64,000 nucleotides of DNA, from assembly GCA_039962225.1 (NCBI GenBank), contig JAMPKV010000010.1:265924-329923 (forward strand). Direction: 5' to 3'. The stretch's first letter is position 1, and each line of letters starts with the position of its first letter. Shown one piece after another: positions 5,128-34,145 of this stretch. The translations under genes and the position numbers were made by a program. Source of the stretch: Microcoleus sp. AS-A8. GTDB taxonomy: Bacteria > Cyanobacteriota > Cyanobacteriia > Cyanobacteriales > Coleofasciculaceae. The notes under the pieces are model-generated. The model had not been told where the DNA came from. It worked only from the letters and a program-made list of their open reading frames with translations, and did not search any database.

Positions 5128-5835
5128 ATGTACATATTGATTGGTGGAGCAGGGTTAGTGGGGCTGAACTTAGCCCAAGAGTTAGTGGCATTGGGGCATA
5201 CAATTGCAGTCATTGATATTGACCCCGCAGCCTGCCGATATGCACGGGAGCAGGTGGGGGTGATGGCGTTTGAAGGTAGTGCCGTGAATACCCAATTGCT
5301 GCTAGAAGCGGGAATTCGCAAGGCCGATGCACTTGTTGCTGCCCTCCGGGATGATCCACTAAATCTGGCACTGATTACCCTTGCCAAACACTATGGCGTG
5401 CCTCATATTGTGACGCGGATGCGAAACCGGGATTTTGCCGAACCTTATCGTCTTGCAGGAGCTCATCACGTCATCGGCACGATTGACTTAGCCGTGAATA
5501 CAATGGTGACCGTCCTTGAATATCCTCAAGTGGAATCAATGATGCATTACGAGCAGGGACAGGTCGAAGTTTTCAAGCTGGCCATTCCACCAGATTCCCA
5601 TGTTGCGGGTCGTAGCGTTGCCCTAGTCGCTAAGGATGCCCGTTTTCCCGAAGGTTCTTTGATTATTGGCTATCAATCCCATCCTCATGCCGATCTAGTC
5701 ATTCCTAATGGCAATACTATGCTAGAGACAGGGTCAACCGTTCTAGTGGTGACTAAATCTGAACAGTTGCATCAGGTGGTTGATTATTTGGGTCTGCGTT
5801 CTAGTCATCCTCCAGCTTCAGAAGTTGTTCATTGA
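5128..5835 (+). CDS. TrkA/KtrA-family RCK protein (K+ transport NAD-binding regulatory subunit)
   Basis: MYILIGGAGLVGLNLAQELVALGHTIAVIDID... is a Rossmann GxGxxG RCK_N motif. The C-terminal half resembles RCK_C (TrkA_C). 235 aa. Confidence 0.8.
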   Translation: MYILIGGAGLVGLNLAQELVALGHTIAVIDIDPAACRYAREQVGVMAFEGSAVNTQLLLEAGIRKADALVAALRDDPLNLALITLAKHYGVPHIVTRMRNRDFAEPYRLAGAHHVIGTIDLAVNTMVTVLEYPQVESMMHYEQGQVEVFKLAIPPDSHVAGRSVALVAKDARFPEGSLIIGYQSHPHADLVIPNGNTMLETGSTVLVVTKSEQLHQVVDYLGLRSSHPPASEVVH

Positions 5836-8230: not shown

Positions 8231-10029
8231 TTAATGAGCGGCTTTCGCTCTTACCCGAATCTCCACGATAAACTCTGTCCCTTGCCCTAGGGTAGAAATA
8301 CAACTGATATGACCCTGGTGTTTTTCGACGACAATCTGGTAACTAATGGCTAATCCTAAGCCTGTCCCACTGCCTACAGGCTTGGTGGTAAAAAATGGGT
8401 CAAATATCTGATGCTGCACTTCCTGATTCATGCCAGCACCATTGTCAACAATCCGAATGATCACCGATTGGCTATTGGACATCGGAAATTGGACTTGGGG
8501 AGACGGGGTACACGCTGTCTGAGTTTCCTTATCCCTTGGTCTTTTTGTCTCCTCGTAGGCACCCTTCCGTGTATCCATCCAAATTAGATGAGGCTGCCAA
8601 CTCTCCCATAAGGCTAATCCTTCGGCACCATTTTCAGCTTCTTGTACCTCAAAGCCAATCGGTTCGAGCAATTTAACGAGGAGTAAACGGTTTTCTTTGG
8701 TATCATCAACCACGAGCAGGCGATACACCTCTTGATTTGGCTCTAAACCGATGACTCGCCGGAGGGGTTTGGCTATGAGTTCAATCGAATCTGGTTCATC
8801 AATTTTAATATCAAATTTAAAAATCGCCCCCTCACCTAAAACACTGCTAATCTGAATTTCTCCTCCCATCAGTTGCACAAACTTTCGCGTTATTGCTAAA
8901 CCCAATCCCGTTCCTTCGGCAAATTTTTGACCCGTTTCCGTTTGCACGAAGGCATCAAATAAACCTGCCATTTCCGCTGGTGCAATTCCCGGCCCCGTAT
9001 CTTCTACTTCAAAATGCAGGGTATTAGGAAATAAAAATTGGGAGGAAGACGATGTGCAGACATGGCATCTAGTCTTACCCGTGTATCTCTCTGCGGTGGC
9101 TATTCCTGCATTCACACGCAAATTTACAGTCCCATTTTCCGTAAATTTAATGGCATTAGCCAAGAGATTTATTAAACAAATTCGCAATTTTTTGGGGTCA
9201 GTTTTTATATAGTGAGGAACATTTGATGGAACCTTAAAGATTAGTTGTATTTTTTTTGCTCGGCTTTGATTTGTAGCATTTCCTCCAAAGAATCAAGGAG
9301 ACGATACAAGTCAAAGCTACTTTCATAAAGTGTACTTAGACCCGCCTCGATTTTGGATAAATCCAAAACATCATTGATTAAATCCAGTAAATGCTCCCCA
9401 CTGCGATTGATGATTCTCAAATATTCTCGCTGCTCAGTACTCAATTGCAGATCGCGGCTCATCACTTGAGTAAAACAGAGAATTGCATTGAGAGGAGTGC
9501 GGAGTTCATGACTCATATTTGCCAGAAAGTCACTTTTTGCTTTAGAGGCTGCTTCAGCCGCTTTTTCGGCTTTCAATCGCTCTTGAATTTCCTGTTGTAA
9601 TTGTTGATTTTGCTCTCGGAGTTGATGGGAGAGCCTCTGAATCGTCAGTTGATGCTCAACCCGTGCCAAAACTTCTGCGACTTGAAACGGCTTGGTAATA
9701 TAGTCCACTCCACCAACTGCAAAGGCTTTAATCTTGTCCAATACTTCATCCAGGGCACTAATAAAAATGACTGGAATTTCGCAGGTTTTTGGATCAGCTT
9801 TGAGTTTAGAGCAGACCTCATAGCCATCCATTTCTGGCATTCTAATGTCCAGTAAAATCAGATCGGGTGGAGCCGATCTGGCGGCTCTTAACGCCATTTG
9901 TCCCTTGACGACGCCCCGGACTTTATATCCCCTCTCTGAGAGTGTGGCAGATAAAATTTGCAGATTTTCGGGTGTATCATCAACGATTAAAATGTTTCCT
10001 GAATCTACTTCAATTTGATTACTATTCAT
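8231..10029 (-). pseudogene. Hybrid sensor histidine kinase (REC-coiled coil-HisKA-HATPase-REC) disrupted by a -1 frameshift in a homopolymer, with a chimeric degenerate C-terminus
   Basis: ORF 9241-10029 encodes REC + HisKA ([11 protein letters not shown]) and ends ...[14 protein letters not shown] 8231-9187 continues in another frame with the N-box LINLLANAIKFT, G-boxes, then a receiver domain broken after LIWMD and fused to a second HATPase tail (IRIVDNGAGM...GTGLGLAISYQIV). The frame junction maps to the T8 run at 9250-9257 (A8 on the coding strand). Nine A would give EQKKIQLIF, collinear with the paralogue's QNKNLQLVF. Confidence 0.6.
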
Positions 10030-13412: not shown

Positions 13413-13848
13413 TTGAATCTTTGATGTTTGATTCAAGAGGTAATAATTGCCTATGCACACAAACTTTTTTCTTTTTCGCGTGGGCAATAACACCCACGAC
13501 TAAAGTTCTTTTTACCTTTCTTCCCTTTTGCCTTTTGCCCTCTGCCCTCTGCCTTTTTTGTAAAAAAAACGTGGGAGCATAATAGCCCTCCGCCTTCTAT
13601 CTTCTGCTTCTGAATGTAGGGGCACGACATCTCGTACCCCCATTCGATCACACCTAAAGCACAAGAAGTCTCCTCATCTACCTAATGCGGATTGTCAGGA
13701 AAATCAAAATCAAGAATTGGCCCTTTGGGAACGAGACCCTGAGGGTTTACATTTCCTCAGAAAGAGTTTGATTACCAAAAGCTTACCTCTGGAGCTTTTG
13801 TAAGGTGAGATCTAACCCAAACAGTACTTCATCCTTCATACTTGAAAA

Positions 13849-14148: not shown

Positions 14149-14163
14149 GGTTAGTAATTATAG

Positions 14164-14250
14164 GGTTGAAGGTTGGAGGTTGAAGGTTGAAGGTTGAAGG
14201 TTGGAGGTTGGAGGTTGAAGGTTGAAGGTTGAATGTTGGAGGTTGGAGGT
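14164..14250. repeat. Tandem heptanucleotide array (GGTTGAA/GGTTGGA, about 12 units; minus-strand TTCAACC/TCCAACC). Cyanobacterial STRR-like.
   Basis: Read directly: gggttgaaggttggaggttgaaggttgaaggttgaaggttggaggttggaggttgaaggttgaaggttgaatgttggaggttggagg. It sits in the ycf3-gatC spacer. Confidence 0.85.
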
Positions 14251-14288
14251 TCCACTTGCCAACTTGTCAACTTTCAACCTGTTAACTT

Positions 14289-15133: not shown

Positions 15134-15862
15134 ATGAAACGTTTTCAAAAATTATCTCTGCTGGGAGCCATTGTAGCCCTAAGTACAATAACTGCCTGTG
15201 CATCAGGTTCAAATAATACCGTTGATTCAGGCGTTGGCAGCGATCGCGCTACCATCCCCGCTCCAAGCGAACAATCCACCGCACCATCACCTGCGGCAAC
15301 GCCGAATAATCAGCCCGAAGAAACCCCTGACACAACCCAGGCATCAACAAGACCTAGCACGAAAACTGACACGATTAACATTGAAGGGGAAGAGAGTGAG
15401 GTGACGCTGAAGCTTTACGATGAGCTCAGTCAGGTTTTTACCACCTATTTTCCCAAAGATGATTTTGTTGCCGAATCTGCTAGTTCTGGAGCAGATACAG
15501 GAAGCATATTTTATTACAACGTAGATGGAAATAAAAACAAAGATGTTTACGTCTCCATATCCTTTCCTACCGGGGCAAACAACGCAGAACAGCTGGAAAG
15601 ATTACTAACGGCAAAGGGTGGATTGGTTCAAAGAAATCAGTGGCAAATGGAGGAGCGGACGAAAGATGTCCCGTATTCTTGGGCCAAGGAAAAAATCCTT
15701 TACAAACAACCTGGAAGTGAGGAAAACCTACTCGTTCAACTGTACATTGGCGAAGCAAATGGGAAAGTTTTCTATGTTATTACCCATTATCCAGCGGAAT
15801 ATGGAGATGGGTTTGCACCACGAGCTAACTTCATTCTGGACAATTTGGAAGTTAAAGGTTAA
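15134..15862 (+). CDS. Hypothetical lipoprotein (signal peptide with lipobox, Pro/Thr/Ser-rich linker, globular C-terminal domain)
   Basis: MKRFQKLSLLGAIVALSTITAC-ASGS is a lipobox-like motif, followed by a low-complexity PAPSEQSTAPSPAATP segment. 242 aa. Confidence 0.5.
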   Translation: MKRFQKLSLLGAIVALSTITACASGSNNTVDSGVGSDRATIPAPSEQSTAPSPAATPNNQPEETPDTTQASTRPSTKTDTINIEGEESEVTLKLYDELSQVFTTYFPKDDFVAESASSGADTGSIFYYNVDGNKNKDVYVSISFPTGANNAEQLERLLTAKGGLVQRNQWQMEERTKDVPYSWAKEKILYKQPGSEENLLVQLYIGEANGKVFYVITHYPAEYGDGFAPRANFILDNLEVKG

Positions 15863-15869
15863 CGGTTTC

Positions 15870-16718
15870 TTATTCTTGATACTCGGTTATAGGCTTGCTC
15901 CGATTCAGCCACTTGCTCAAGAATTTCCAGTGACGGAAGGGGTAAACTAATTGAGCCATAAAGTTTTCCGTGATTGTCTCGCCATAGAGTCCAAAATTCT
16001 TGGGTTGGCGACCACCAGGCATGTAAAACGTGCCAAAGATCACATCATAAATGGGGAAAAGTCCTGCAAAGTTCTTGCCCCATCCTTCTTCATCCATTGT
16101 ATGGTGCCAACGGTGAAAGGCAGGACTCGCTAGGACATAGCGAAAAGGCCCATAAGTCCAGCAAATATTGGCATGGATCAGAGCCACGTAGCTGGATAAG
16201 AACGGGACATAAAATTCAACCGCGATCGGAGAGATGCCCAGAATCAGCAAGGGAGAGGCTTGCATCACTCGCGAGATGATGTCATTGACCGGATGCAGAC
16301 GAACCGCCGTCAGCCAGTCCACTATCTCTGCACTATGGTGGACAGCGTGATAATCCCAGAGTTGGCGGGTATGGTGCCAGCGATGAGTCCAGTAGCCAAT
16401 GAAATCGCCCATTACAATCGCGATCGCACCTTGTACCCAAAGGGGTAACTGTGAGATTGGGCCGTACCCTGCCAGAACGCTGTCCCATTGTAGCGATCGC
16501 CCCAGCAGCAGGTAAAGCGGCAGAACGACTAACGCGATGGAGATCATGCTCAGGATCTGAATCACCATGGGGGTGAAAAACCAATAGAACGAGTCTAACC
16601 ACACACCCCGCCGCCATTTGGGTTGATTGGGAATGCTCGGATAGAAGCGTTCGAGGATACCAAACAGAACTGTGAGCAGAATATATAAAACTAGCGCCCT
16701 AACTAACCGTCCTTTCAT
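15870..16718 (-). CDS. Fatty acid hydroxylase superfamily / sterol desaturase family membrane protein (CrtR-like di-iron hydroxylase)
   Basis: Histidine boxes HRWHH, HAVHH and FHRWHH, with 4 TM helices. 282 aa. Confidence 0.7.
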   Translation of the reverse strand: MKGRLVRALVLYILLTVLFGILERFYPSIPNQPKWRRGVWLDSFYWFFTPMVIQILSMISIALVVLPLYLLLGRSLQWDSVLAGYGPISQLPLWVQGAIAIVMGDFIGYWTHRWHHTRQLWDYHAVHHSAEIVDWLTAVRLHPVNDIISRVMQASPLLILGISPIAVEFYVPFLSSYVALIHANICWTYGPFRYVLASPAFHRWHHTMDEEGWGKNFAGLFPIYDVIFGTFYMPGGRQPKNFGLYGETITENFMAQLVYPFRHWKFLSKWLNRSKPITEYQE

Positions 16719-16971: not shown

Positions 16972-18327
16972 TTACGAGGAGCTGGATGAGGTTTTGATTC
17001 CCTTAAACCGTTCTTGGGCTACTTTAAACGCATCTTGCATCACCAACTGAATTTTCTTGGGATCGGGTTTCTTACCCCCCATTAAATCCCCGAAGTAAAC
17101 GCAGGCTCCTTCCCCCAGTGCCCAGGTGTAGGCCGCAGCCCAAGAGGCGGCAATCACACTGCCAAAACCAGGGATAAATTTGACTAATTCTCGTCCCACT
17201 GCCCTGGCGAGGAAGCCACTGGCGATCGCACTCACCACTCCTCCGGCCTGTGATGGGGTGAGTGTCTGCCCATACAATCGCCCCAACAGACCCACCATTG
17301 AGACTTGTAATGCTGTCAGCACGGGCATACTGGCAAAGGGGACGGGTACAGCCTCCAGGGCGGCTGCCATGATGGCAAAGGCCAACATGTAACGCCGTCC
17401 CACATCTCGGTAGAGGTTGCCCAGTTGTTTGCCAACTTCGTCCCGCTCCAATAACTGATAAATCGCACGGGCTTCCGCTTCTGGGAGAAGGTCGGCGAGG
17501 GAAGTCGAGAGTGCTTCTAAGCCATAAAATACAGGATGGTAGCCGTCTTCTTCTAAGGTGAAGTCAATTAAGACGGCGCGATCGCAAATTCCGGTAAAGG
17601 CGTCCTGAATAGCGGTGAAGGCTCGGTTAACCTCCTCATAATCGGGCGGATAGACCGGATGATCAGCAGTACCGGGCGGATAAACCTCATGCAAGCACGT
17701 CACCACGAGTAGACAGGGAATATCTGGATACTGCTGACGCAGTTGAGCCGCAATGTGTCGCAGTGTATCGGTGGCAAAATCATTGATTTTAACGGTTAGA
17801 ATCAGGACTCTGGCGCGGCGTGTTTCCTGTTGCAGATCGCCCACCAATTCCTGAATAATGACCTGAGTCTCTTGGTTCACATCTCCCAGTCCCACCGTAT
17901 CGGTAAAAATCAGCAACGGCAGGTCATTGGAGGGATAGGCATAACGTTCGGTGTGTTGCGTATGGGGACGATATCCCTGACCCACAATCTCCGCAGAAAC
18001 CCCCGTCAGCCCCCGCACAATCGAGCTTTTTCCAGCTTGGGGCTTCCCAATCAGCAGGGCTTCTGTGGTGGGCAGTTCGGCGCGAACCGTCTCCAAAATC
18101 TCTGCAACCTGTTCTTCGCTGACGCTAAACCACTGACTCACGGTTTGAGCGAGTTGGTCTACGGGTAAGAGTTGCACCAAACGTGTTGTTGTGTTGTTCC
18201 AGATACCCGAAATGCGGTTTTTCCAGGAATCGTCAACCGACTCAGTCGTCATACCCTCAGTTGGTTCACTCAACGGCTGAGAATTATCTGACGGCGAGTC
18301 AGTTTCATGTGGCTCAGTCATTGGCAT
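16972..18327 (-). CDS. P-loop GTPase with C-terminal DUF697/YcjF-like membrane domain
   Basis: G1 LIGKPQAGKSSIVRGLTG, G3 DTVGLGD, then a C-terminal hydrophobic region (LAFAIMAAALEAVPVPF...VSAIASGFLARAVG). 451 aa. Confidence 0.7.
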   Translation of the reverse strand: MPMTEPHETDSPSDNSQPLSEPTEGMTTESVDDSWKNRISGIWNNTTTRLVQLLPVDQLAQTVSQWFSVSEEQVAEILETVRAELPTTEALLIGKPQAGKSSIVRGLTGVSAEIVGQGYRPHTQHTERYAYPSNDLPLLIFTDTVGLGDVNQETQVIIQELVGDLQQETRRARVLILTVKINDFATDTLRHIAAQLRQQYPDIPCLLVVTCLHEVYPPGTADHPVYPPDYEEVNRAFTAIQDAFTGICDRAVLIDFTLEEDGYHPVFYGLEALSTSLADLLPEAEARAIYQLLERDEVGKQLGNLYRDVGRRYMLAFAIMAAALEAVPVPFASMPVLTALQVSMVGLLGRLYGQTLTPSQAGGVVSAIASGFLARAVGRELVKFIPGFGSVIAASWAAAYTWALGEGACVYFGDLMGGKKPDPKKIQLVMQDAFKVAQERFKGIKTSSSSS

Positions 18328-18565
18328 AATAACGGTTCATAGATTTCAGTCAGATCTTATCTATCTAACATGAGTGCGGGATAAGGAGGGGTGGGGCAGA
18401 TAAAGTTGAAAGTGCCGAATTTTCGACTTACCTGACCCCCCATGCCTAAATATTACCTTCAACTTTGCTTGCGATCGCTTTTACCCAACAACAGACTTTA
18501 CCACTACTAAAATACGACCTTCTGTATATTGACTTATCCAGTGTTTTATGTAACTAAGGTAGTTA

Positions 18566-18766
18566 ATGTACGAACTTCCCTATATTGACTTATCAAATAT
18601 TTTGTGTGTTTTTAGCAATATCTACAAAAACAAAGAATTGTCAATCCACCTATTTAAAGAGTATAAGAAGTCACCGCTGATTCTTTTAAAGATTCATAAA
18701 GATAGGCTTGTGAGCAAATTGACAAATGTACGAACTTTTATATATCGACATTGTCGATTTGATTGA
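18566..18766 (+). CDS. Conserved 66-codon Lys-rich ORF inside the duplicated leader (coding status uncertain)
   Basis: MYELPYIDLSNILCVFSNIYKNKELSIHLFKEYKKSPLILLKIHKDRLVSKLTNVRTFIYRHCRFD. It is duplicated at 24417-24608 with one substitution. AT-rich composition could produce it by chance. Confidence 0.15.
   Translation: MYELPYIDLSNILCVFSNIYKNKELSIHLFKEYKKSPLILLKIHKDRLVSKLTNVRTFIYRHCRFD
18719..18746 (+). promoter_or_regulatory. Putative sigma70-type promoter (TTGACA-16 nt-TATATC) inside the leader
   Basis: ttgacaaatgtacgaacttttatatatc. It would give a ~370-nt 5' UTR for the giant gene. The copy 2 equivalent at 24567-24594 has TTGCCA. Confidence 0.3.
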
Positions 18767-19119
18767 ACATACTGAGAAGACGAAATAACGTTCAAGGTTG
18801 TTTCAGCCAATCACTCTAAGGGAATTCACTGTTGAAAATACTCTGTTGTTTCAAAGGCATAGCTTCACTCCCTGAGACGATAAGGGTTTGTCGGTAATTA
18901 TTTGGGGATTGGGCAGGGTTGCCCTTACACAAACTAAGAATTTTGCACCCATTAGGTTGGTGTAAATCTACGTCATCTCAATTATCCGAGATTTTATCTC
19001 TTGGCGTTGGCATGAGGCTAAGTGTTCATTGCGTTCTCCTCGAAGTGAGGTTGGCGTTCATTTCTGCTGTTTTTTTTGCCTGTACTAACTAACCAAACTC
19101 AACATATTCGGGAATTTTT

Positions 19120-22100
19120 ATGGCAACTTTTAAATGGATCGGTAGCGGCGCAACTAATAACTGGACTGAGGCAGCGAATTGGAGCCTTGTTAGTGGCACA
19201 GGATCAGATCCAGACGGTATTCCTGATGCAGATGATGTGGCGCTTTTTGATGGGACATCGACCAAAAATGCCACTATTAATACCAACTTCAGCATCCAAA
19301 ACCTTCAGGTGGCTGCTGCTTATACAGGAAGCATTAGCCTGGGTTCAAATACACTGGCGGTTGCAGGGGGATTTGCGATCGCAAATGCCAGCAGTTTTGA
19401 CTCAGGGACAGGGACAGTACGCTTTACTGGAAATCAGACTGTAGATACTACAGCAGCACTGTACAACCTGGAAGTTGCGATCGCTAGCGGTAATCTAACT
19501 CTAGTGAAAGATTTGGTGGTCAGCAACGACCTTACCATCACCGATGTCAATCAAATTTTCGGCAGTGGTGGCTCATTCAATATCAAGGTCAGTGGGGATG
19601 TCATCACCAACGATGCCAACTTTAACAACAGCAACTCTGCCATTCAACTGGTAGGCAGCACCGACCAAAGTATCAGTGGCACTGGGGTACTGTGGAATCT
19701 CGATGTTGCCAAAACGGGGGGCGATGTCCTGCTCACCGATGACCTGCGATTACGTGGTGGCACTCTGTCTGGTTCAGGTCTGCTCAAAAATGCTGGCGGT
19801 AAGGTGGTCTTTGGAGAGCCGAGTATCTTTAACGAAGGCTATGTCAGTAACTTCAGTGGTTCTATTGATGATGTTGAGCTGAAGTTTCAGTCTCAGTCCA
19901 ACTTTTTGCTCAGTAAAGACTTGGTTGTTAACAATGACCTAATCATCACTGAGGTGCAGACGATTGCAGGCAATGGTGGCTCATTCAATATCAAGGTCAG
20001 TGGGGATGTCATCACCAACGATGCCAACTTTCGCAACAGCAACTCTGCCATTCAACTGGTAGGCAGCACCGACCAAAGTATCAGTGGCACTGGGGTACTG
20101 TGGAATCTCGATGTTGCCAAAACGGGGGGTAATGTCTTGCTCACCGATGACCTGCGATTGCGCGGCGGCACTCTGTCTGGTTCAGGTCTGCTCAAAAATG
20201 CTGGCGGTAAGGTGGTCTTTGGAGAGCCGAGTATCTTTAACGAAGGCTATGCCAGTAACTTCAGTGGTTCTATTGATGATGTTGAGCTGAAGTTCGGTTT
20301 TGCAGGCAACTTGACGCTCAACAAGGATTTAATCGTTAACAATGACCTGATTATTACCGATGTCAATCAAATTGCAAGCAGTGGCTTCAGTATTAAAGTT
20401 GCTGGAGATGTGATTTCTAGTGATACCAACGGGATCTCTGGAACGGGTGCCATTACTTTAGTAGGCAGTGCGACAAACACTTACACAGGCTTGGGCAGTG
20501 GAACACAGGGGAACCTGGTAATCGATAAAGTGACCTCAACAGACAAAGCATTGTTAGGTTCCAGCGAGACTTTCTCGTCGATTGTTGTTAATGAAGGTAT
20601 TTTCGATGTCAATGGTAAAACTGCGACTGCTGGCACGACCATCAACAACGGTGGAACCCTCGGCGGATCGGGCAAAGTAATTGGCAATGTCACAGTTAAC
20701 AGTGGTGGTGTGCTAGCTCCTGGTAGTGGCATTGGTATTCTCAACACAGGTTCTGTTAACTTTACCAACGGCTCACTGTTCAACGTAGAGTTAGGCGGTA
20801 CATCGGCAGGCAATGGGGTTGGATTCTACGATCAGCTAAATGTAACGGGTACAGTGACGATTGGCACCAGCGCTGTACTGAATACATCACTGTTTGGCGG
20901 ATTTACGCCAGGTGGTGGTAACACATTTATCATTGTCAACAATGATGGTGTTGATGCTATCACTGGAAGATTTAATGGCTTAGCTCAAGGAGCGACAGTC
21001 AATCTGGGTTCTGGAATAAATGCCACTATCTCGTATACGGCAGGGGATGGTAATGATATTGGACTATCGCTCCTCAACCAGGCACCTAATCTTACAGGCA
21101 ATGCAACATTAGCTGCTGTTGCGGAAGATACCACCAACCCTAACGGTCAAACAATTTCCACCGTCTTCAATGGACTGTTTAGCGACCCGGATGCAGGCGC
21201 AAGTCTTGGCGGTGTTGCAGTCGTTGGGAATACTTCAAATGCAACTACACAAGGGACGTGGCAATACTCTACAGATGGTACAAACTGGTTTGCTGTAGGC
21301 ACGGTTGCGGATGGTGCAACAGCTCTGGCACTCTCTGCCAGCACGGTAGTCCGGTTTGTTCCCGTTGCCAATTACAACGGTGCTCCCCCGGATTTAACTG
21401 TTCGGGCGATCGATAACACCTACAGTAGTGGATTTACCAGTGGGGGTACTCGTATCAATGTGAACACTGGTACGAATGGGGGAACGACCGCAATTTCTGG
21501 TACCACCAACACCATTAACACCAGCATCACGGCGGTTAACGATGCACCAATAGGCTCACCGATCGCAACTCTAGCAACTGGAACCGAAGACATCCCCTAC
21601 ACCATCAGCAAAGCCGACTTGCTAGCAGGCTTTAGTGATGTTGATGGCGATTCCTTGTCACTCAGCAATGTCACAGTCAATGGCACGGTTCTGACGGCGG
21701 ATAGCAGTGGGAACTACATCTTCACACCTGCTGCCAACTTCAAAGGCACTGTCAACGTTTCTTACAACGTAGTGGATGGTAAGGGTGGCTCACTAGCAGC
21801 AACTCAGTCCTTTGCGATCGCTCCTGTTAACGATGCACCTGTACTAGCAACCAATACCCTAAGCATTACTGAAGGTGGCACAGTTACCCTAAGCAGCAGC
21901 AACCTCAACACCAGTGACTCGGATAATACTCCAGCTCAACTGCTCTACACCATTAGCAACATCAGCGGTGGCAGCTTCGGTGGTACAGGCGTCACCACTA
22001 ATGGCAACGGTACTGTCAGCTTTACCCAAGAGGCGATTAACAACGGAGTAGTACAGTTCACCCACGATGGAGGTGAAAACCCACCTAGCTATGCCGTTAG

Positions 22101-24012
22101 CGTCAGCGATGGTGCGTTGAATACAAACCCAGCAACTGTGACTATCCCATCGGGCGGCTTCACTCCCGTCAACGATGCACCTACGGGCACACCGACAGCA
22201 ACATTAGCAGCGGGAACTGAAGACACGGTTTATACAATCAGCCAAACCGCTCTGTTACAAGGTTTCACCGATGTAGAGGGCAATACTCTCTCTGTTGCTG
22301 ACCTAACTGCCAGCAACGGCACCTTGGTCAACAACAACAACGGCACCTACACCTTCACACCTGCTGCCAACTTCAACGGCACCGTCAACCTTTCCTATAA
22401 CGTGGTGGATGGCAATGGCGGTTCAGTGGTAGCCACTCAGTCCTTTGCGATCGCTCCTGTTAACGATGCACCTGTACTAGCAACCAATACCCTAAGCATT
22501 ACTGAAGGCGCTACAGTCATCCTCTCTCCTACTAACCTCAACACGACTGACTCTGATACACCTGCAACCGGACTGACTTACACCGTTAGCAACGTCACAG
22601 GGGGCCAGTTCGAGACTGTTGCTAATCCTGGAACAGCAATTACCAGCTTTACCCAGGACAACATCAACAATGGAGCAGTACAGTTTGTCCACAACGGCGG
22701 TGACGCGGCTCCTTCTTACTCAGTCAGCGTCAGCGATGGTGCTCTCAGCACCCCTGCAACTCCGGTTAGCATTGGTAATTTTACCTCTGTTAATGACGCT
22801 CCCACTCTAGCAACCAATACCCTAAGCATCACTGAAGGCGGCACGGTTACCTTAAGCAGCAGCAACCTCAACACCAGTGACTCGGATAATACACCCGCTC
22901 AACTGCTCTACACCATCAGCAACATCAGTGGTGGCAGCTTTAGCGGTACAGGCGTCACCACCAATAGCAACGGCACTGTCAGCTTTACCCAAGAGGCGAT
23001 TAACAACGCAGTAGTACAGTTCACCCATGATGGCGGTGAAAACCCACCCAGCTATGCCGTCAGTGTCAGCGATGGTGCGTTGAATACAAACCCAGCCACT
23101 GTCACTATCCCAGCAGGTAGCTTCATTCCTGTTAATGATGCACCCATTGTGGTCGGGCAAGGCATTGAGGATCAAATCATCTCAATTAATCAAGCCTTCT
23201 CCTTAAATGTCAGCAACAATTTTAGTGACGTTGACCCAGGGAATATTCTTACCTACACGGCTACAGGCTTACCCAGTGGTTTCAGCCTCAATGCCAACAC
23301 GGGTATCGTATCCGGCACAATTTCCACTCCTGGCATTTTTAATGTGAATGTCACAGCCAATGATGGAGATGGTGGCACAGTGAGTGATGCCTTTGAACTG
23401 ATTGTTGCTAATAATAATGCCACTCCTTTTGATGACATCATCTACATGAGCCAACTCTCTGGCATCCACAAAGATAAAATCAATGCCAAAGAAGGGCGCG
23501 ATCGCGTGATTGGCACCAGTGCTAATGAGTTTATTGGCGGTGCAGAAGGCGATGATTACTTGGATGGTCAGGGCGGTAACGACAAACTTCTCGGTGGTGA
23601 TGGTAACGACACGCTCATTGGTGGACTTGGCAGTGACGACCTCCAAGGCGGTGACGGGAACGACACCTTGACCGGTTGGGGCAGTGGTACAGGGAGTGCC
23701 AATCAAATCGACGAACTCAAAGGTGGCAGCGGAGCTGACCTCTATATTCTGGGAAATAGTACCTCCGTCTTTTACAACTTGGGTGGCTACAATGACTACG
23801 TCAAGATTGTTGGCTTTGAAGCTGAGGATCGCATTCAGCTAAAGGGAACAGCTAGCAACTACTCTTTGGGTTCACTTCCATCATCTGTGTCTACAGATAA
23901 TGCCTCTATCGGCCTGTTTACCAATTCCGGCACAGAATTGATTGCCGTCCTCAAAAACGAAGGTTTAACCTCCACTAGCCTGACAACAGATGCTCGCTTT
24001 ACTTTCGTTTAA
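19120..24012 (+). CDS. Giant secreted repeat protein (1630 aa). Beta-strand repeat N-terminal region, cadherin-like VNDAP modules, C-terminal RTX (GGxGxD) calcium-binding nonapeptides. Likely type I secretion substrate/adhesin (oscillin/SwmA-like class).
   Basis: No N-terminal signal peptide. At least 6 modules begin (P)VNDAP... e.g. PVNDAPVLATNTLSITEGGTVTLSSSNLNTSDSDNTPAQLLYTISNISGGSF...VQFTHDGGENPPSYAVSVSDGALNT. The C-terminus reads GGAEGDDYLDGQGGNDKLLGGDGNDTLIGGLGSDDLQGGDGNDTLTGW. Composition is Thr/Asn/Gly/Ser-rich. Confidence 0.85.
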   Translation: MATFKWIGSGATNNWTEAANWSLVSGTGSDPDGIPDADDVALFDGTSTKNATINTNFSIQNLQVAAAYTGSISLGSNTLAVAGGFAIANASSFDSGTGTVRFTGNQTVDTTAALYNLEVAIASGNLTLVKDLVVSNDLTITDVNQIFGSGGSFNIKVSGDVITNDANFNNSNSAIQLVGSTDQSISGTGVLWNLDVAKTGGDVLLTDDLRLRGGTLSGSGLLKNAGGKVVFGEPSIFNEGYVSNFSGSIDDVELKFQSQSNFLLSKDLVVNNDLIITEVQTIAGNGGSFNIKVSGDVITNDANFRNSNSAIQLVGSTDQSISGTGVLWNLDVAKTGGNVLLTDDLRLRGGTLSGSGLLKNAGGKVVFGEPSIFNEGYASNFSGSIDDVELKFGFAGNLTLNKDLIVNNDLIITDVNQIASSGFSIKVAGDVISSDTNGISGTGAITLVGSATNTYTGLGSGTQGNLVIDKVTSTDKALLGSSETFSSIVVNEGIFDVNGKTATAGTTINNGGTLGGSGKVIGNVTVNSGGVLAPGSGIGILNTGSVNFTNGSLFNVELGGTSAGNGVGFYDQLNVTGTVTIGTSAVLNTSLFGGFTPGGGNTFIIVNNDGVDAITGRFNGLAQGATVNLGSGINATISYTAGDGNDIGLSLLNQAPNLTGNATLAAVAEDTTNPNGQTISTVFNGLFSDPDAGASLGGVAVVGNTSNATTQGTWQYSTDGTNWFAVGTVADGATALALSASTVVRFVPVANYNGAPPDLTVRAIDNTYSSGFTSGGTRINVNTGTNGGTTAISGTTNTINTSITAVNDAPIGSPIATLATGTEDIPYTISKADLLAGFSDVDGDSLSLSNVTVNGTVLTADSSGNYIFTPAANFKGTVNVSYNVVDGKGGSLAATQSFAIAPVNDAPVLATNTLSITEGGTVTLSSSNLNTSDSDNTPAQLLYTISNISGGSFGGTGVTTNGNGTVSFTQEAINNGVVQFTHDGGENPPSYAVSVSDGALNTNPATVTIPSGGFTPVNDAPTGTPTATLAAGTEDTVYTISQTALLQGFTDVEGNTLSVADLTASNGTLVNNNNGTYTFTPAANFNGTVNLSYNVVDGNGGSVVATQSFAIAPVNDAPVLATNTLSITEGATVILSPTNLNTTDSDTPATGLTYTVSNVTGGQFETVANPGTAITSFTQDNINNGAVQFVHNGGDAAPSYSVSVSDGALSTPATPVSIGNFTSVNDAPTLATNTLSITEGGTVTLSSSNLNTSDSDNTPAQLLYTISNISGGSFSGTGVTTNSNGTVSFTQEAINNAVVQFTHDGGENPPSYAVSVSDGALNTNPATVTIPAGSFIPVNDAPIVVGQGIEDQIISINQAFSLNVSNNFSDVDPGNILTYTATGLPSGFSLNANTGIVSGTISTPGIFNVNVTANDGDGGTVSDAFELIVANNNATPFDDIIYMSQLSGIHKDKINAKEGRDRVIGTSANEFIGGAEGDDYLDGQGGNDKLLGGDGNDTLIGGLGSDDLQGGDGNDTLTGWGSGTGSANQIDELKGGSGADLYILGNSTSVFYNLGGYNDYVKIVGFEAEDRIQLKGTASNYSLGSLPSSVSTDNASIGLFTNSGTELIAVLKNEGLTSTSLTTDARFTFV
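19470..20420 (+). repeat. Recent in-gene tandem duplication, unit 408 bp (136 aa), 2 full + 1 partial copies
   Basis: ggctcattcaatatcaaggtcagtggggatgtcatcaccaacgatgccaacttt occurs at 19570 and 19978 (offset 408). The shadow ORFs 19676-19882 and 20084-20290 are 408 nt apart and near-identical. Confidence 0.75.
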
Positions 24013-24317
24013 TCGCGTCTTGTTGAGGTAAAAGAGTGAAGATTTGATTGGAATTGAGAGGGTTGCCCCAAAGGAACAACCCTCTTCACTCCGGTAACAC
24101 TAATCCTGTTGAGTGCGATCGCTATCCCCAGCCTGTTCACAACTCAAGTTCCGCGTTGAGTATATTTCAGGATATTTGGTGGGCGATCGCTCTTTTTTTT
24201 TGCCAACTGCTGAGGATACAGAAGACCCAGAGGGAGAAAAAGCGATCGCTTAACCTACAGTCTTGATTGATGGCGATTGCACTAGAGACGAGTCTTCATC
24301 AACTCTTCATCCATTTG

Positions 24318-24986
24318 GTTTGCGATCGCTTTTACCCAACAACAGACTTTACCACTACTAAAATACGACCTTCTGTATATTGACTTATCCAGTGTTTTAT
24401 GTAACTAAGGTAGTTAATGTACGAACTTCCCTATATTGACTTATCAAATATTTTGTGTGTTTTTAGCAATATCTACAAAAACAAAGAATTGTCAATCCAC
24501 CTATTTAAAGAGTATAAGAAGTCACCGCTGATTCTTTTAAAGATTCATAAAGATAGGCTTGTGAGCAAATTGCCAAATGTACGAACTTTTATATATCGAC
24601 ATTGTTGAACTGATTGAAGATACTGGGAAAACTCAATAAAGTTAAAGGTTCACACAAATCATCACTCTCAGGAAATTCACTGTTGAAAATATCCTGTTGT
24701 TCCAAAGGTATAGATTCACTCCCTAAAACAATAAGGGTTTGTAGGTAATTGTTTTGGGATGGGGCATGGTTGCCCTGACACCCACTGAGAATTTTGCACC
24801 AATCAGGTTGGTGTAAATAAAAGTAATCTCAACTTGTCTGAGATTTCATCTCTTGGCGTTGGCATGACGCTAAGTGTTCATTGCGTTCTCCTCGAAGTGA
24901 GGTTGGCGTTCATTTCTGCTGTTTTTTTTGCCTGTACTAACTAACCAAACTCAAGAAAACACAAGAACTAGAGGCATTTATCAATT
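24318..24986. repeat. Copy 2 of the duplicated leader, preceding the second giant gene
   Basis: See 18472-19119. It includes small-ORF copy 24417-24608 and a T8 tract before the start codon. Confidence 0.85.
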
Positions 24987-27900
24987 ATGGAATTTTTCAC
25001 GACAATTCAGAATGACAATTCACAGGATGGAATGAGCTGGGAAATAGGTACGGCACTTCGCTCTCGCAGAAACGATGAAATCGCTATCTCTGATTCGGGT
25101 TGCAGAGTCGCTTCACACAAGCAGAATGTTGATGAAGTTCGGCAAGTTTTGAGTGGAATTGCCTTTATTGATTCGGGATTAGACGATTACCAAAGTTTGG
25201 TTGCGGGAGTGGCATCAGGAATTGAGGTGGTTGTCCTCGACTCCACACAGGATGGGGTGGAGCAAATTAGTCGGGCACTGGCGCAACGGCAGAGAATTGG
25301 CAGTATCCATATTGTCTCTCATGGCGCTCCCGGTGCAATTTATATCGGTAATCGCGAACTGAGTCTAGAAACGCTGAATCAGTATGGAAGCGAACTTTTA
25401 AGCTGGGCAGATTGGCTAGCTTCCGATGCTGAAGTGTTGATTTACGGTTGTGAGGTAGCAAAAGGCGATCGCGGACAAGCCTTTATCCACCGCTTGAGTG
25501 AGCTAACTGGAGCAGCGATCGCGGCTTCAGCAACGCTGACAGGTTCCTCTGAACGAGGTGGCAACTGGGAGCTAGAGTTTAATACTGGAAGTAGTGAGGC
25601 TTCAGAAGTTTTTCAACCCTGGACACAGACGGCTTACAGCCATGTGTTGGCGACTTTTAGCGTCACGAATACCAACGATAGTGGTGCCGGTTCATTGCGG
25701 CAGGCGATCTTAGATGCAAACGCAGCGGCAGGAGCAGACACAATCGAGTTTTCAGGTTCCATCTTCACCGATGCAACTCCCGACACCATAAACCTGACTT
25801 CTGGAACGCTCAATATTACAGGCGACACCACAATTACGGGAACCGGAGCCAGCAATTTGAGCATTGCCAGAAGCTCCAGTGCATCTAACTTTGGCATCTT
25901 CAATATCACAGGTGCAAACGTTAACTTGAGCAGCTTGACGGTTACAAATGGTGTTAGCAATTTGGCCGGTGGTATTTTTTATCAAGGTGCTGGAACGCTG
26001 AATCTCACTAACACTGTTGTCTCCGGTAATAGAGGAAGCAATGGAGCTGGGCTGTGGGTTAATGGTACTGGTGCTGCAAATGTAGTCAACAGCACTTTTG
26101 CAAATAATACTGCTCCCGGAGGACTCGGTGGTGGTATTTTGCTTAACACTGCCACCACAATTAACATCATCGATAGTCAGATAACGGGAAACTCTGCCGC
26201 AAGTGGTGGTGGTATTAACAATAATGCTCAAGGTGGCATCATTAATGTTACCAATAGCACAGTTTCTGACAATACGGCTACTGATTTGGGTGGTGGTATT
26301 TCAAACCGCTACCATCAAGTAAATGTTATCAATAGCACCATCTTTAACAACACGGCGGGTAATAGCGGTGGTGGAATTTACCATCAATCGGGCACTTTTA
26401 CAGTAAGTAACTCCACTGTTTCGGGTAACCGCTCCAATAATAACGGTGGTGGTATCTACAACGATTTGTCCGGTGCAGTGATGAATTTGTTGAACAGCAC
26501 CATTACTAACAATATTGCTGACAACGACAATAACGGTTCGGGTAACGGTGGCGGAGTTGCCAGAAATACTGGAACTGTTAACGTTAAAAACACCATCATT
26601 GCTGGAAATTTCGATAGTCCCAATGCTAATACAGCAACTGAAAATCCCGATGTCTCTGGAATTTTTAATAACCAAGGCAATAACCTGATTGGCATCAATA
26701 CTGGCAGTAACTTTGTTGCTGGAGGTTTAATTGGCTCTGCTGCAAATCCAGTCGATGCCTTACTAGCTCCCCTGGCTAACAATGGGGGTTCAACTCTGAC
26801 CCATGCTCTACTTTCTGGCAGCCTTGCTATTAATGCAGGTAGTAATACCAGTATCCCTGCTGATACTGCCGATTTAGATGGAGATGGAAATAAAACTGAG
26901 TCTATCCCGTTTGATCAGAGAGACTCAGGTTTTACAAGGCTTTACGGTAGCTCTGTCGATATCGGGGCTTTTGAAGTCCAACCTCCCTCCAATACTCCAC
27001 CAACCCTTAGTGCTCCAGTGACGGTATCTGCAACTGAAGATGACGCTCCTTTGAGCGTTAATCTGCTGGCTAATGCGTCTGACCCTAATGCTGGTGACAC
27101 TCTCAACGCGACCAACCTCACCCTTACGAGTGGCAATGCGGCGGGTGTAACAATTAACGGCAACAGTCTGAGCGTCGATCCCAGCGCGTACAATAGTCTG
27201 TCTGCTGGGGAGAATGAGGTCATTACTTACAGCTACAACATCATTGATGGCAATGGTGGTAGTGTTTCCCAAACGGCGACTCTCACTATTAATGGTGTCA
27301 ACGATGCACCTGTACTCACAACCAACACCCTAAGCATCACAGAAGGTGGCACGGTTACCCTAAGCAGCACCAACCTCAACACCAACGACCCGGATAATAC
27401 TCCAGCGCAACTGCTCTACACCATCAGCAACATCAGTGGCGGCAGCTTTAGCGGTACTGGCGTCACTAACAATAGCAACGGTAGTGTCAGCTTTAGCCAA
27501 GAGGCGATTAATAATGGACTGGTGCAGTTCACCCATGATGGAGGTGAAAACCCGCCCAGCTATGCCGTCAGTGTCAGTGATGGTGCATTGAACACCACCC
27601 CAGCAACTGTGACTATCCCCGCAGGCAGCTTCACTCCCGTCAACGATGCCCCTGTACTAGCAACCAACACTCTTACCATCACTGAAGGTGGCACAGTTAC
27701 CCTAAGCAGCACCAACCTGAACACCAGCGATTCAGATAATACACCAGCTCAACTGCTATACACCATTAGCAACATCAGCAGTGGCAGCTTTAGCGGTACT
27801 GGCGTCACAACTAATAGCAACGGTACTGTCAGCTTTAGCCAAGACGCGATTAATAACGGACTGGTGCAGTTCACCCATGATGGAGGCGAAAACCCACCTA

Positions 27901-28760
27901 GCTATGCCGTCAGTGTCAGCGATGGTGCGTTGAATACCACCCCAGCCACTGTGAGTATCCCCGCAGGCAGCTTTATACCTGTCAATGATGCCCCAGTAGC
28001 GACGGGTGACACGACAACCACCAGTCAAAACACAGCCGTGAATATCAGTGTGCTGGCAAACGACAGCGATATCGAGGGTAACTCTCTCAGCTTGAGCCTT
28101 GGCACCAATCCCAGCAACGGCACTGTCCAAATCAATAACAACGGCACTGCCTCAATTCTGTCCGATGACTTCCTCACTTACACTCCTAACAATAGCTTCA
28201 GTGGCACTGATAGCTTTAACTACACCATCAATGACGGCAATGGTGGAACTGCCACGGCTACTGTCACAGTAGCTGTAGGTAAAACCTTAGATGGCACCAA
28301 CAAAGACGATTTGCTCGACGGTACCTCAGGCAACGATATTTTCAGGGGCGGTAATGGTCAGGATACCCTGAACGGATTTGCAGGTGACGACCTACTGGAC
28401 GGCGGCAACGGGAAAGATACTCTTAATGGCGGTGTCGGTAACGATACCCTACTCGGTGGCAATGGCGAAGATGTTCTTGTCGGTGGCGATGGCAATGACT
28501 TGCTAATTGGCGGTAATAGTCCTGACACTTTAACGGGAGGCACTGGCAGCGATATCTTTGCGATCGCTAAAAATGGAGCCAATGATACGATTACCGACTT
28601 CAGTTTAGGTCAAGGCGATCGCATTGGTCTATCTGAAGGTCTGACGTTTGGCGAACTGACCTTCCAAGCCAACAACATTCTCAGAGGCACTGAAGTTTTA
28701 GCGACTCTGACTGGGTTTGATACCACAACTCTTACTCAGGCTAACTTCATAGCTGTTTAA
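24987..28760 (+). CDS. Giant secreted repeat protein (1257 aa). DUF4347-like N-terminal domain, right-handed beta-helix (choice-of-anchor-Q/PbH1-like NxTxxxNxAxxGGGI repeats), cadherin-like VNDAP modules, C-terminal RTX nonapeptides.
   Basis: N-terminus ...IHIVSHGAPGAIYIGNRELSLETLNQYGSELLSWADWLASDAEVLIYGCEVAKGDRGQAFIHRLSELTGAAIAAS matches the DUF4347 pattern. Beta-helix turns read VTNSTVSDNTATDLGGGI / INSTIFNNTAGNSGGGIY / VSNSTVSGNRSNNNGGGIYN, ending DIGAFEVQ. RTX: GGNGQDTLNGFAGDDLLDGGNGKDTLNGGVGNDTLLGGNGEDVLVGGDGNDLLIGG. Confidence 0.85.
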   Translation: MEFFTTIQNDNSQDGMSWEIGTALRSRRNDEIAISDSGCRVASHKQNVDEVRQVLSGIAFIDSGLDDYQSLVAGVASGIEVVVLDSTQDGVEQISRALAQRQRIGSIHIVSHGAPGAIYIGNRELSLETLNQYGSELLSWADWLASDAEVLIYGCEVAKGDRGQAFIHRLSELTGAAIAASATLTGSSERGGNWELEFNTGSSEASEVFQPWTQTAYSHVLATFSVTNTNDSGAGSLRQAILDANAAAGADTIEFSGSIFTDATPDTINLTSGTLNITGDTTITGTGASNLSIARSSSASNFGIFNITGANVNLSSLTVTNGVSNLAGGIFYQGAGTLNLTNTVVSGNRGSNGAGLWVNGTGAANVVNSTFANNTAPGGLGGGILLNTATTINIIDSQITGNSAASGGGINNNAQGGIINVTNSTVSDNTATDLGGGISNRYHQVNVINSTIFNNTAGNSGGGIYHQSGTFTVSNSTVSGNRSNNNGGGIYNDLSGAVMNLLNSTITNNIADNDNNGSGNGGGVARNTGTVNVKNTIIAGNFDSPNANTATENPDVSGIFNNQGNNLIGINTGSNFVAGGLIGSAANPVDALLAPLANNGGSTLTHALLSGSLAINAGSNTSIPADTADLDGDGNKTESIPFDQRDSGFTRLYGSSVDIGAFEVQPPSNTPPTLSAPVTVSATEDDAPLSVNLLANASDPNAGDTLNATNLTLTSGNAAGVTINGNSLSVDPSAYNSLSAGENEVITYSYNIIDGNGGSVSQTATLTINGVNDAPVLTTNTLSITEGGTVTLSSTNLNTNDPDNTPAQLLYTISNISGGSFSGTGVTNNSNGSVSFSQEAINNGLVQFTHDGGENPPSYAVSVSDGALNTTPATVTIPAGSFTPVNDAPVLATNTLTITEGGTVTLSSTNLNTSDSDNTPAQLLYTISNISSGSFSGTGVTTNSNGTVSFSQDAINNGLVQFTHDGGENPPSYAVSVSDGALNTTPATVSIPAGSFIPVNDAPVATGDTTTTSQNTAVNISVLANDSDIEGNSLSLSLGTNPSNGTVQINNNGTASILSDDFLTYTPNNSFSGTDSFNYTINDGNGGTATATVTVAVGKTLDGTNKDDLLDGTSGNDIFRGGNGQDTLNGFAGDDLLDGGNGKDTLNGGVGNDTLLGGNGEDVLVGGDGNDLLIGGNSPDTLTGGTGSDIFAIAKNGANDTITDFSLGQGDRIGLSEGLTFGELTFQANNILRGTEVLATLTGFDTTTLTQANFIAV

Positions 28761-29074: not shown

Positions 29075-30436
29075 ATGTATATTTCTAGTTCAATAGCCAT
29101 GAAAGAGAGCCATGACGGCTTAGATTTTATCGAAAAATTAATTTATGTAAAAACAGGGAAATCTCTCAATAATATTCAAAAAGCTGTATTACAGCAATTT
29201 TGGCAAGATTCCAGAAAAACCTATGAAGAATTTGCTAAAGAATTAGAATATTCTGCTAGTTATATCCAGCAAACAGTTGCTCCTCAGCTCTGGCGTCTCT
29301 TGTCAGAGATATTAGGCGAAAAAGTCAGTAAAATTAATTTTCGTTCTATCGTAGAAAGGCAGTGGTTAAACCAAGTTTTGAGTAAAAGTGATAACCTGAT
29401 TGAGCCACCAATGCTAGAATTGATGGACTTAGAATTTCCAGAGGGACGAGTTTCTCTAAGTTCCCCATTTTACATAGAGCGAGTTCCCCACGAAAGCAGG
29501 TGCTATGCAGAAATTGTTAAACCAGGAGCCTTTATCCATATCCAAGCACCCAAGCAAATGGGCAAAACTTCTTTGTTGGGAAGGATTCTTGCTTATGCAA
29601 CAAGGCTAGGCTATCAAACAGCCAGCTTGAACTTGCACAGAGCAGATCAATCGATTCTCACAAACCTAGATAAGTTGTTGCGGTGGTTTGCCTGGGAAGT
29701 CAGTCATAAACTAAAACTAAATCCCAAATTGGATGACTATTGGTATGAAGATTTGGGCAGTAAGGCGAGCTGCACAAACTATTTTCAAGACTATCTATTA
29801 GAACAAATCAATTGCCCCTTTTTCTTAGCAATGGATGAGGTGAATGAAATTTTTCAAAATCCGCAAATTGCCCAAGATTTTTTATCACTTTTGCGTTCTT
29901 GGCATGAAGAATCAAAAGACAACAAAATTTGGCAAAAACTCCGCTTGGTAGTTGTTAATTGCACAGAAGCTTATGTGTCTCTAAATATTAATAAATCTCC
30001 ATTTAAGGTAGGGATACAAATTCAGTTGGACTCATTTACCTGGGAGCAGGTACAGGATGTAGCCCAGCGTCATCGACTCGATCTATCAATCGATGATTTA
30101 GCTCAGCTTATGTGGTTAGTAGCCGGTCATCCTTATCTCTTGCGTTTGGCTTTATACCATCTGGCTCAAGAGAGTTTGACGTTGGAGGAACTGCTACAAA
30201 CGGCTGCTTCAGATACTGGGATTTACAGCGAACACCTGCACCAAAAATCGTGGTATTTACAACAGAATTCGGAACTAGCGGCAGCGTTTGAGAAGGTTTT
30301 AAAGGCAAAAGCTCCCATTGAGTTGGAGCAGGTACAGGCGTTCAAGTTGCACAGTATTGGGCTGGTGAAAATGGAAGACAAGCTAGCAATGACTAGCTGT
30401 AATTTGTATCAGCAGTATTTTGGCGATCGCTCTTAA
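29075..30436 (+). CDS. AAA-like (AAA_35-type) P-loop NTPase with N-terminal HTH-like module
   Basis: Walker A QAPKQMGKTSLLGRIL, Walker B FFLAMDEVNEIF. N-terminus LNNIQKAVLQQFWQDSRKTYEEFAKELEYSASYIQQTVAPQLWRLL. The gene and its flanks (28860-30440) are visibly lower in GC than their surroundings. Confidence 0.7.
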   Translation: MYISSSIAMKESHDGLDFIEKLIYVKTGKSLNNIQKAVLQQFWQDSRKTYEEFAKELEYSASYIQQTVAPQLWRLLSEILGEKVSKINFRSIVERQWLNQVLSKSDNLIEPPMLELMDLEFPEGRVSLSSPFYIERVPHESRCYAEIVKPGAFIHIQAPKQMGKTSLLGRILAYATRLGYQTASLNLHRADQSILTNLDKLLRWFAWEVSHKLKLNPKLDDYWYEDLGSKASCTNYFQDYLLEQINCPFFLAMDEVNEIFQNPQIAQDFLSLLRSWHEESKDNKIWQKLRLVVVNCTEAYVSLNINKSPFKVGIQIQLDSFTWEQVQDVAQRHRLDLSIDDLAQLMWLVAGHPYLLRLALYHLAQESLTLEELLQTAASDTGIYSEHLHQKSWYLQQNSELAAAFEKVLKAKAPIELEQVQAFKLHSIGLVKMEDKLAMTSCNLYQQYFGDRS

Positions 30437-34094: not shown

Positions 34095-34145
34095 TGTACA
34101 AGCAATGTTGCTTCTGCCTTCTGCCTCCTGCCTTCTGCCTTTTTG
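34095..34145. repeat. CTGCCTTCTGCC-type short tandem/dispersed repeat (related copy at 13537-13575)
   Basis: gcttctgccttctgcctcctgccttctgcctttttg here, versus ccttttgccttttgccctctgccctctgccttttttg at 13537. The flanking CACTAGTGCAG motif occurs 3 times within 34035-34275. Confidence 0.6.

Follow-up and report, generated by a model that had tools for sequence, protein, structure and literature searches.

Why should two copies of a non-coding sequence in one bacterial genome be nearly identical at both ends and diverged in between? The question is raised by a stretch of 64,000 nucleotides (nt) from Microcoleus sp. AS-A8 (contig JAMPKV010000010.1), referred to here as the window, in which two genes that encode giant proteins of the secreted-adhesin type lie in tandem, each preceded by a copy of a sequence of about 630 nt (leaders A and B). 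A first-pass annotation had recognized this homologous upstream region of the two genes and read its mosaic identity as the mark of a long structured 5' untranslated region (UTR) in which function constrains the ends. The homology was confirmed by our analysis, but the step from mosaic identity to structured-RNA constraint was not. We consider it likely that the 630-bp repeat is the upstream control region of the adhesin genes, with conserved boxes and a sigma-70-like promoter, and that the mosaic is the footprint of recombination between copies and between strains.

Mosaic identity and probable recombination between leaders

Alignment of 18440-19140 with 24286-25010, together with a per-site list of differences, showed that leader A (18472-19102) matches leader B (24323-24954) over ~630 nt in three parts (Table 1), reproducing the near-identical ends and diverged middle. 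The 5' module has 1 mismatch in 283 positions (99.6% identity; 18722, A/C) and the 3' module 1 mismatch in 107 positions (19016, G/C, for which the earlier ambiguity code R should read S), against 46 differences, one of them a 1-nt indel, over the 241 columns of the middle (81% identity). At the divergence of the middle, the binomial probability of 282/283 identity would be 6e-25 and that of 106/107 would be 4e-9; the mosaic is therefore not due to chance. The homology stops at 19102 and 24954, leaving 17 nt to the gene 1 ATG and 32 nt to that of gene 2. From the 5' module through the middle to the 3' module of leader A, the G+C content rises from 31.6% to 40% and then to 42.5%. No third copy of the leader was found in the window.

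Identical ends around a diverged middle, seen between copies within one genome, are no proof of functional constraint without copies from outside that genome. Seven such copies were recovered by way of proteins homologous either to the adhesin N-termini or to the neighboring GTPase. They comprise a JGI metagenome contig (L001), a metagenome-assembled genome labelled 'Ca. Sericytochromatia' (L017), two JGI contigs (L048 and L055), an ENA contig (L056), Microcoleus sp. ZQ-A2 (L054, with a leader of 681 nt), and the chromosome of Allocoleopsis franciscana PCC 7113 (L047, CP003630.1), which holds the 3' module only. HIP1 sites (GCGATCGC) and synteny assign the window to a cyanobacterium, with ZQ-A2 as its closest relative and PCC 7113 more distant. 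Full-length comparisons were made across eight copies, namely A, B and the six foreign leaders L001, L017, L048, L054, L055 and L056. All seven outside copies lie directly upstream of the same DUF4347/cadherin/RTX adhesin family on Coleofasciculaceae-like contigs. No leader homology was detected by nhmmer at 28 other DUF4347 loci (Nostoc, Microcoleus, Oscillatoria, Symploca and others) or at five more distant homologue loci, and the leader family therefore appears to be confined to a narrow clade. A plasmid collection gave no leader match by blastn, and a metagenome scan with an 18-mer returned 15 loci, all of them chance matches of 19-29 nt. A genome-contig scan with the 21-mer CCTCGAAGTGAGGTTGGCGTT gave 0 matches, a weak negative since PCC 7113 has the exact 21-mer and is evidently not in that collection. 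Negatives from this genome-contig collection are unreliable for the clade.

Between genomes, the segment most identical in A and B proved to be the fastest evolving, and the proposal that function constrains the ends held at neither end. The 5' module was the least conserved part of the leader, with 70-83% identity for every pair (mean 76.2%), about the level of 4-fold synonymous sites in the adjacent DUF4347 coding sequence (CDS; mean 79.3%). Its 99.6% identity between A and B is therefore to be read as concerted evolution and not as constraint. Identity was 86-91% in the middle and 86-98% (mean 91%) in the 3' module, with first codon positions of the CDS at 89.7%. The sequence from ~18745 to the start codon thus appears moderately constrained (86-91% vs 79% at 4-fold sites), and the 3' module, the only leader part kept in PCC 7113, appears constrained but no more so than the middle. 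Exceptional conservation of the 3' module, suggested by 95-98% identity in fewer copies, was weakened once three more copies gave 86-93%.

Adjacent segments of the middle have different genealogies, which is a signature of recombination. Over 18755-18860, copy A is 89-92% identical to all six foreign copies, and copy B, with ~22 changes of its own, is at 74-77% with every other copy. Over 18861-18995 the pattern of A and B is mixed, with many of the differences confined to A; of the 46 differences between the two, most early ones are B-unique and many late ones A-unique. The discordant genealogies, together with tract identity that is incompatible with the neighboring divergence, are what gene conversion would leave behind. 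L001 and L048 share a DUF4347 CDS that is 98.6% identical, and their 5' modules are only 79.5% identical. The near-identity of the ends in A and B thus appears to be a signal of recombination within the genome. The two modules may have been homogenized by gene conversion, or A and B may have been duplicated together recently and then received imported patches; the middle carries segments of different ancestry, with B the outlier over 18755-18860 and the two copies mixed over 18861-18995.

Concerted evolution by gene conversion between duplicates in one bacterial genome is familiar from tufA/tufB and the rRNA operons. The leaders resemble these cases in that copies within the genome are, over the defined tract of the 5' module, far more alike than orthologues between genomes, and in the abrupt ends of the tracts. 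They differ in that the homogenized tracts belong to the non-coding regulatory DNA of two genes that are themselves not identical, and in that an unhomogenized segment lies between these tracts.

Boxes, candidate promoter and locus architecture

Each leader carries three direct copies of a box with the core TACGAACTTnnnTATATYGAC (6 matches in the window vs 0.01 expected). Box 1 is present in all eight full copies, box 2 follows it by 56 nt in seven of the eight (55 nt in L056), and box 3, with one variable position across the eight, follows box 2 by 160 nt (150 in L017, 159 in L054). This spacing is kept even though substitutions have nearly saturated the intervening sequence, and apart from the 10-nt deletion in L017 no sizeable change in length was seen. 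Since substitutions are tolerated and length changes are not, the pattern suggests a DNA-level architecture of protein-binding sites and a promoter.

The first-pass annotation had placed a promoter at 18719-18746, giving a 5' UTR of ~370 nt. It consists of TTGACA (18720-18725), a 16-nt spacer and TATATC, and it overlaps box 3; its TTGACA varies between copies (TTGCCA, TTGGCA, GTCGCA). A consensus scan found a better conserved candidate in both window copies, TCGACA-17 nt-CATACT, which matches the consensus at 9/12 positions. Its hexamers and its 17-nt spacer, within the 16-18 nt looked for, are invariant in the eight copies except for GATACT in B. A conserved promoter-like site thus does lie close to the predicted one and a UTR of ~340-370 nt is possible, although the TTGACA itself is variable. 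In our interpretation, the control region would consist of regulatory DNA, a promoter at 18745-18773 and probably a long untranslated leader of ~340 nt whose sequence is moderately constrained. The three ~21-nt boxes and other islands would be putative protein-binding sites that feed the promoter. Both copies share identical boxes and promoter, and the two adhesin genes would therefore be co-regulated.

The leader also stands out against its flanks. Between the window and ZQ-A2, five flanking genes are 91-97% identical at 4-fold sites and 97-99% identical in nucleotides, and the first 513 nt of gene 2 are 99.0% identical, while the leader is only 75-92% identical. Mismatch density rises abruptly at ~18480, and no leader mismatch occurs beyond 24953. 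In the window, as in L054, L055 and L056, the locus is flanked by the GTPase gene at one end and by the DUF4347 gene at the opposite end. The leader thus appears to be a sharply bounded, divergent 'switched' intergenic island, with flanks 96-99% identical and alleles differing by 10-30%. As a separate observation, the GTPase gene is more diverged from L048, L055 and L056 (4-fold identity 84-88%), and the two genes beyond it (15134-16718) are at 96-98% for L048 and L056 and 83-87% for L055; diversity seems to increase towards the adhesin locus.

'Switched' intergenic regions, or horizontal regulatory switching, were defined for the Piggy pipeline as alleles of <90% identity (PMC5890482); earlier work in E. 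coli on transfer of noncoding DNA is listed there as reference 17. The likeness lies in divergent alleles at the same locus, between the same flanks of near-identical genomes, with sharp boundaries. The block in the window differs in holding a whole extra adhesin gene bracketed by two leaders, and the leader alleles here are still alignable and carry conserved boxes at fixed spacing.

In place of the one leader that ZQ-A2, L055 and L056 have at the locus, the window carries leaders A and B with gene 1 and a spacer between them. Four gene arrangements were found at this one locus: DUF4347 fused in frame to the gene 1 body, in L048 (9360-10070) and in protein P0002 of Trichocoleus sp. DQ-A3; a decayed gene 1 remnant with the 3' module only, in PCC 7113; a single DUF4347 gene, in ZQ-A2 and L055; and the tandem pair of the window. 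The two leader copies would follow from the presence of two such genes in tandem, and the 283-bp and 107-bp identical direct repeats may make gene 1 prone to loss by recombination. Four arrangements among close relatives offer a useful entry point to the diversification of surface adhesin repertoires and their regulation, at a control region that is hypervariable yet architecturally rigid and stands before giant RTX/cadherin adhesin genes of filamentous cyanobacteria. The element itself is of an ordinary kind and no new class: a promoter-leader region duplicated with its gene family, shuffled, and homogenized at its ends. The example is nevertheless well resolved and has not been described.

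Several points weigh against this interpretation. Eight copies are too few to show in which direction and order the recombination events took place, and conversion of the ends is indistinguishable from recent duplication with replacement of the middle. The middle and 3' module are constrained (~90% identity), which may leave room for a role at the RNA level. Promoter-like sites in the consensus scan were no more numerous than in shuffled sequence, and both the promoter and the transcribed extent of the leader are unproven; a literature search on DUF4347 regulation and on transcription start sites of PCC 7113 found nothing useful. Several of the comparison contigs are metagenomic, the frameshifts in L048 suggest sequencing errors, and identical repeats may in principle be over-homogenized by assembly polishing.

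Table 1. Features of the two leaders and the adhesin genes in the window.
Feature	Position	Strand	Remarks
Leader A, 5' module	18472-18754	+	Low-G+C, putative upstream regulatory DNA; begins at HIP1 site GCGATCGC (18471-18478)
Box 1	18513-18533	+	TACGACCTTCTGTATATTGAC
Box 2	18569-18589	+	TACGAACTTCCCTATATTGAC
Conserved island	18667-18693	+	AAGTCACCGCTGATTCTTTTAAAGATT; nearly invariant in 8 copies within an otherwise variable module
Box 3	18729-18749	+	TACGAACTTTTATATATCGAC
Sigma-70-like site	18745-18773	+	Candidate core promoter; predicted start near 18780
Leader A, diverged middle	18755-18995	+	Aligns with 24606-24847
Palindrome GGGCA-nnnn-TGCCC	18911-18924	+	GGGCA(G/T)GGTTGCCC; stem essentially invariant, loop varies
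Leader A, 3' module	18996-19102	+	Aligns with 24848-24954
T8	19070-19077	+	Last T 43 nt before the A of the gene 1 ATG (19120)
Copy-A-specific 17 nt before ATG	19103-19119	+	Apparent relic of coding linker TYSGIF of a DUF4347-gene 1 fusion
Gene 1	19120-24012	+	1630 aa; cadherin-like/Big_9/He_PIG/RTX, without DUF4347 (Pfam)
Hairpin after gene 1 stop codon	24056-24086	+	Free energy -22.9 kcal/mol, z -3.7
Leader B, upstream extension	24195-24322	+	Missing from copy A; homologous to sequence 5' of the leader in L048, L056, L001 and L017
Leader B	24323-24954	+	5' module 24323-24605; middle 24606-24847; 3' module 24848-24954
Leader B, elements	24364, 24420, 24580; 24596-24624; 24922-24929	+	Boxes; sigma-70-like site; T8
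32-nt proximal leader	24955-24986	+	Only in DUF4347-type copies; nearly invariant in B, L001, L017, L048, L054, L055 and L056
Gene 2	24987-28760	+	1257 aa; DUF4347 + cadherin-like + RTX (Pfam)

Alternative readings of the leader

The reading proposed at first is unlikely on the present evidence. It takes everything between ~18750 and the ATG as a long structured 5' UTR, either riboswitch-like or targeted by a small RNA or protein, and attributes the conserved middle and 3' module to the fold or binding sites of this RNA. It draws on conservation above that of 4-fold sites between ~18745 and the start codon, and this part of the claim stands. Five short local hairpins can also be drawn, and among the one-sided changes are some that preserve pairing as G-U, though on the + strand only; variable columns are somewhat rarer in stems (12/82 vs 20/68, p=0.04), although this comparison is biased because the structure was derived from the same sequences. 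The signals expected of structure itself did not appear. At gathering score, Rfam models found only a tRNA and a 5S rRNA in the whole window, and at E<=10 the region 18400-19200 gave only two minus-strand matches of 19-22 bits against gathering scores of 50-81. Relative to shuffles, folding showed no excess stability: the 3' module had z values of +0.54 and +0.63, and the putative UTR of 347/363 nt gave +0.30 and -0.44. The RNAalifold covariation terms were unfavorable (+0.75 and +2.28). Compensatory changes were found at 0 of 41 pairs in the five hairpins across the eight copies; changes were one-sided in 12 cells and left 22 cells unpaired, and shuffles scored alike. With eight similar copies and limited variation, this covariation test does not prove absence of structure.

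Individual elements behaved in the same way. The hairpin at 19000-19022 is broken in copy A, L055 and L056. The palindrome noted earlier in the diverged middle does exist and has a variable loop; it shows one G-C to G-U change in one copy, no compensatory changes and no T run after it. The middle of L017 tolerates a 178-nt palindromic insertion (5508-5685; DNA fold z -3.5) resembling a miniature inverted-repeat transposable element (MITE). Taken together, the leader is like the cis-regulatory RNAs of Rfam (riboswitches, thermometers, leaders) in its position upstream of a start codon and its sequence conservation, and differs from them in lacking a model match, covariation and excess stability. 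The structured-RNA reading is not supported by this analysis, and a modest RNA-level role of the leader may still exist, given that only eight similar copies were compared. As an aside, the ends of the L017 insertion match window positions 34108-34144 and 13526-13560 at 83-86%, which suggests a related family of small mobile elements.

A bolder extension of the control-region reading, to which we give little credence, would make the leader the handle of a cassette-exchange system for adhesin variation, with conserved edges, swapped alleles or genes, and boxes bound by a dedicated regulator. If so, the edges would be the HIP1 end at 18471 and, at the gene start, the 3' module with the proximal 32 nt. 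Homologous recombination at these edges would allow strains, or the many chromosome copies of a polyploid cell, to exchange regulatory alleles and to gain, lose or behead adhesin genes, while the three phased boxes would keep every variant under one control circuit. The candidate regulator would be the HTH-AAA_35 protein encoded at 29075-30436.

The T8 tract was correctly placed 43 nt upstream of the gene 1 start codon (58 nt before the ATG at 24987 in copy B). Its suggested roles, an attenuator U-tract or a slippage-prone tract for phase variation, are very unlikely and already largely refuted. The tract is identical in both window copies and its surroundings are conserved, but no terminator-like site was found at it in either copy, and the nearest stable hairpin (19031-19057) ends 12 nt before it, so that no G+C-rich hairpin directly precedes the U tract. 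A single terminator-like site was flagged in copy B, at 24852-24874; its tail is weak, and the stem does not hold in copy A. In each of the seven other copies the tract is either interrupted or shortened (TTTATTTT, TTTCTATT, CTTGTTTT, TTTTTTT, TCTTTTT or ATTTTTT), and slippage at this non-coding position would not shift a reading frame. That T8 is shared only by A and B appears to be one more sign of their homogenization.

It is similarly improbable that the low-G+C 5' module is a MITE-like mobile element inserted independently before both genes. Such an origin would account for the low G+C content, the sharp 5' boundary at the HIP1 site and the near-identity of the copies. The module was nevertheless rejected as a MITE: it has no terminal inverted repeats, and a search of the window, 56 fetched loci and the plasmid collection gave no further dispersed copies. 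In 8/8 full copies it also occupies the same position and adjoins the remaining leader sequence without a break. There is equally little to favor the view that assembly or polishing created the perfect tracts and that the true copies are different along their whole length. Consensus polishing can homogenize repeats of this size; here, however, each tract retains a single mismatch and the diverged middle is well resolved, which argues that the copies were separated correctly, and the tract boundaries coincide with breakpoints seen against other genomes. Least probable of all is a small upstream open reading frame (ORF) or leader peptide in the 3' module (ATG at 19012, MxLSVHCVLLEVRLAFISAVFFACTN), which is open in both window copies but was rejected because its ATG is ATA in L048, L054 and L056, a 4-nt indel removes or shifts the stop codon in L001 and L048, most observed substitutions are non-synonymous, and no Shine-Dalgarno-like sequence was seen 5' of the ATG on reading the sequence.

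RTX toxin and adhesin operons such as hlyCABD have a long 5' leader, in that case with an ops/JUMPStart element bound by RfaH, and here too a leader of several hundred nt may precede very long genes for type-I-secreted RTX proteins. The only ops-like match in the leader, GGCGTTGGCATG, has 2 mismatches and is at chance level (44 matches vs 38.7 expected in the window), and the resemblance was rejected.

Adhesin genes and neighboring sequences

The N-terminus of gene 1 corresponds to the part that follows DUF4347 in P0002 and L048. Window positions 19102-19149 translate to TYSGIF-MATFKW, matching the in-frame fusion in both, and the same junction occurs in PCC 7113. Because the TYSGIF linker persists as a relic before the ATG, gene 1 appears to be a 'beheaded' derivative of a DUF4347-fusion adhesin, with the deletion junction AAACTCAA^CATATTC common to PCC 7113. 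The strong hairpin 3' of gene 1 suggests that gene 2 would need its own promoter. Exact-sequence look-ups of both window proteins and of P0002 returned no record.

In L048, the DUF4347 CDS at 9360-9880 has two single-base deletions and many genes of the contig are called in fragments, consistent with an error-prone assembly or a pseudogene. A small divergent ORF of 52 aa abuts the 3' module in PCC 7113 (L047 9721-9879) and has a decayed counterpart in L048 (8327-8505); this stretch is missing from the window and ZQ-A2.

Cadherin-type repeat units of 300 nt, 87-94% identical, are common to genes 1 and 2 (21709-23086 and 27295-27936), and the N-terminal part of gene 1 contains 408-nt periodic repeats (19491-20384). 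The gene 1 repeats and the units shared with gene 2 may be an extra substrate for recombination between both genes.

The GTPase gene (16972-18327) lies upstream of leader A and is divergently transcribed. On the other side, the AAA_35 protein is encoded just 3' of gene 2 and has no counterpart at the PCC 7113 locus. Its ZQ-A2 orthologue (98% nt identity) has an HTH_VMAP-M9 domain (precomputed Pfam), which makes the protein a candidate DNA-binding regulator beside the adhesin genes. Farther away, an intergenic tandem array at 14150-14261 consists of ~16 heptamers (GGTTGAA/GGTTGGA), and the ORF at 41412-43322 contains two 112-nt direct repeats (42613-43099) that are 73% identical and 375 nt apart.

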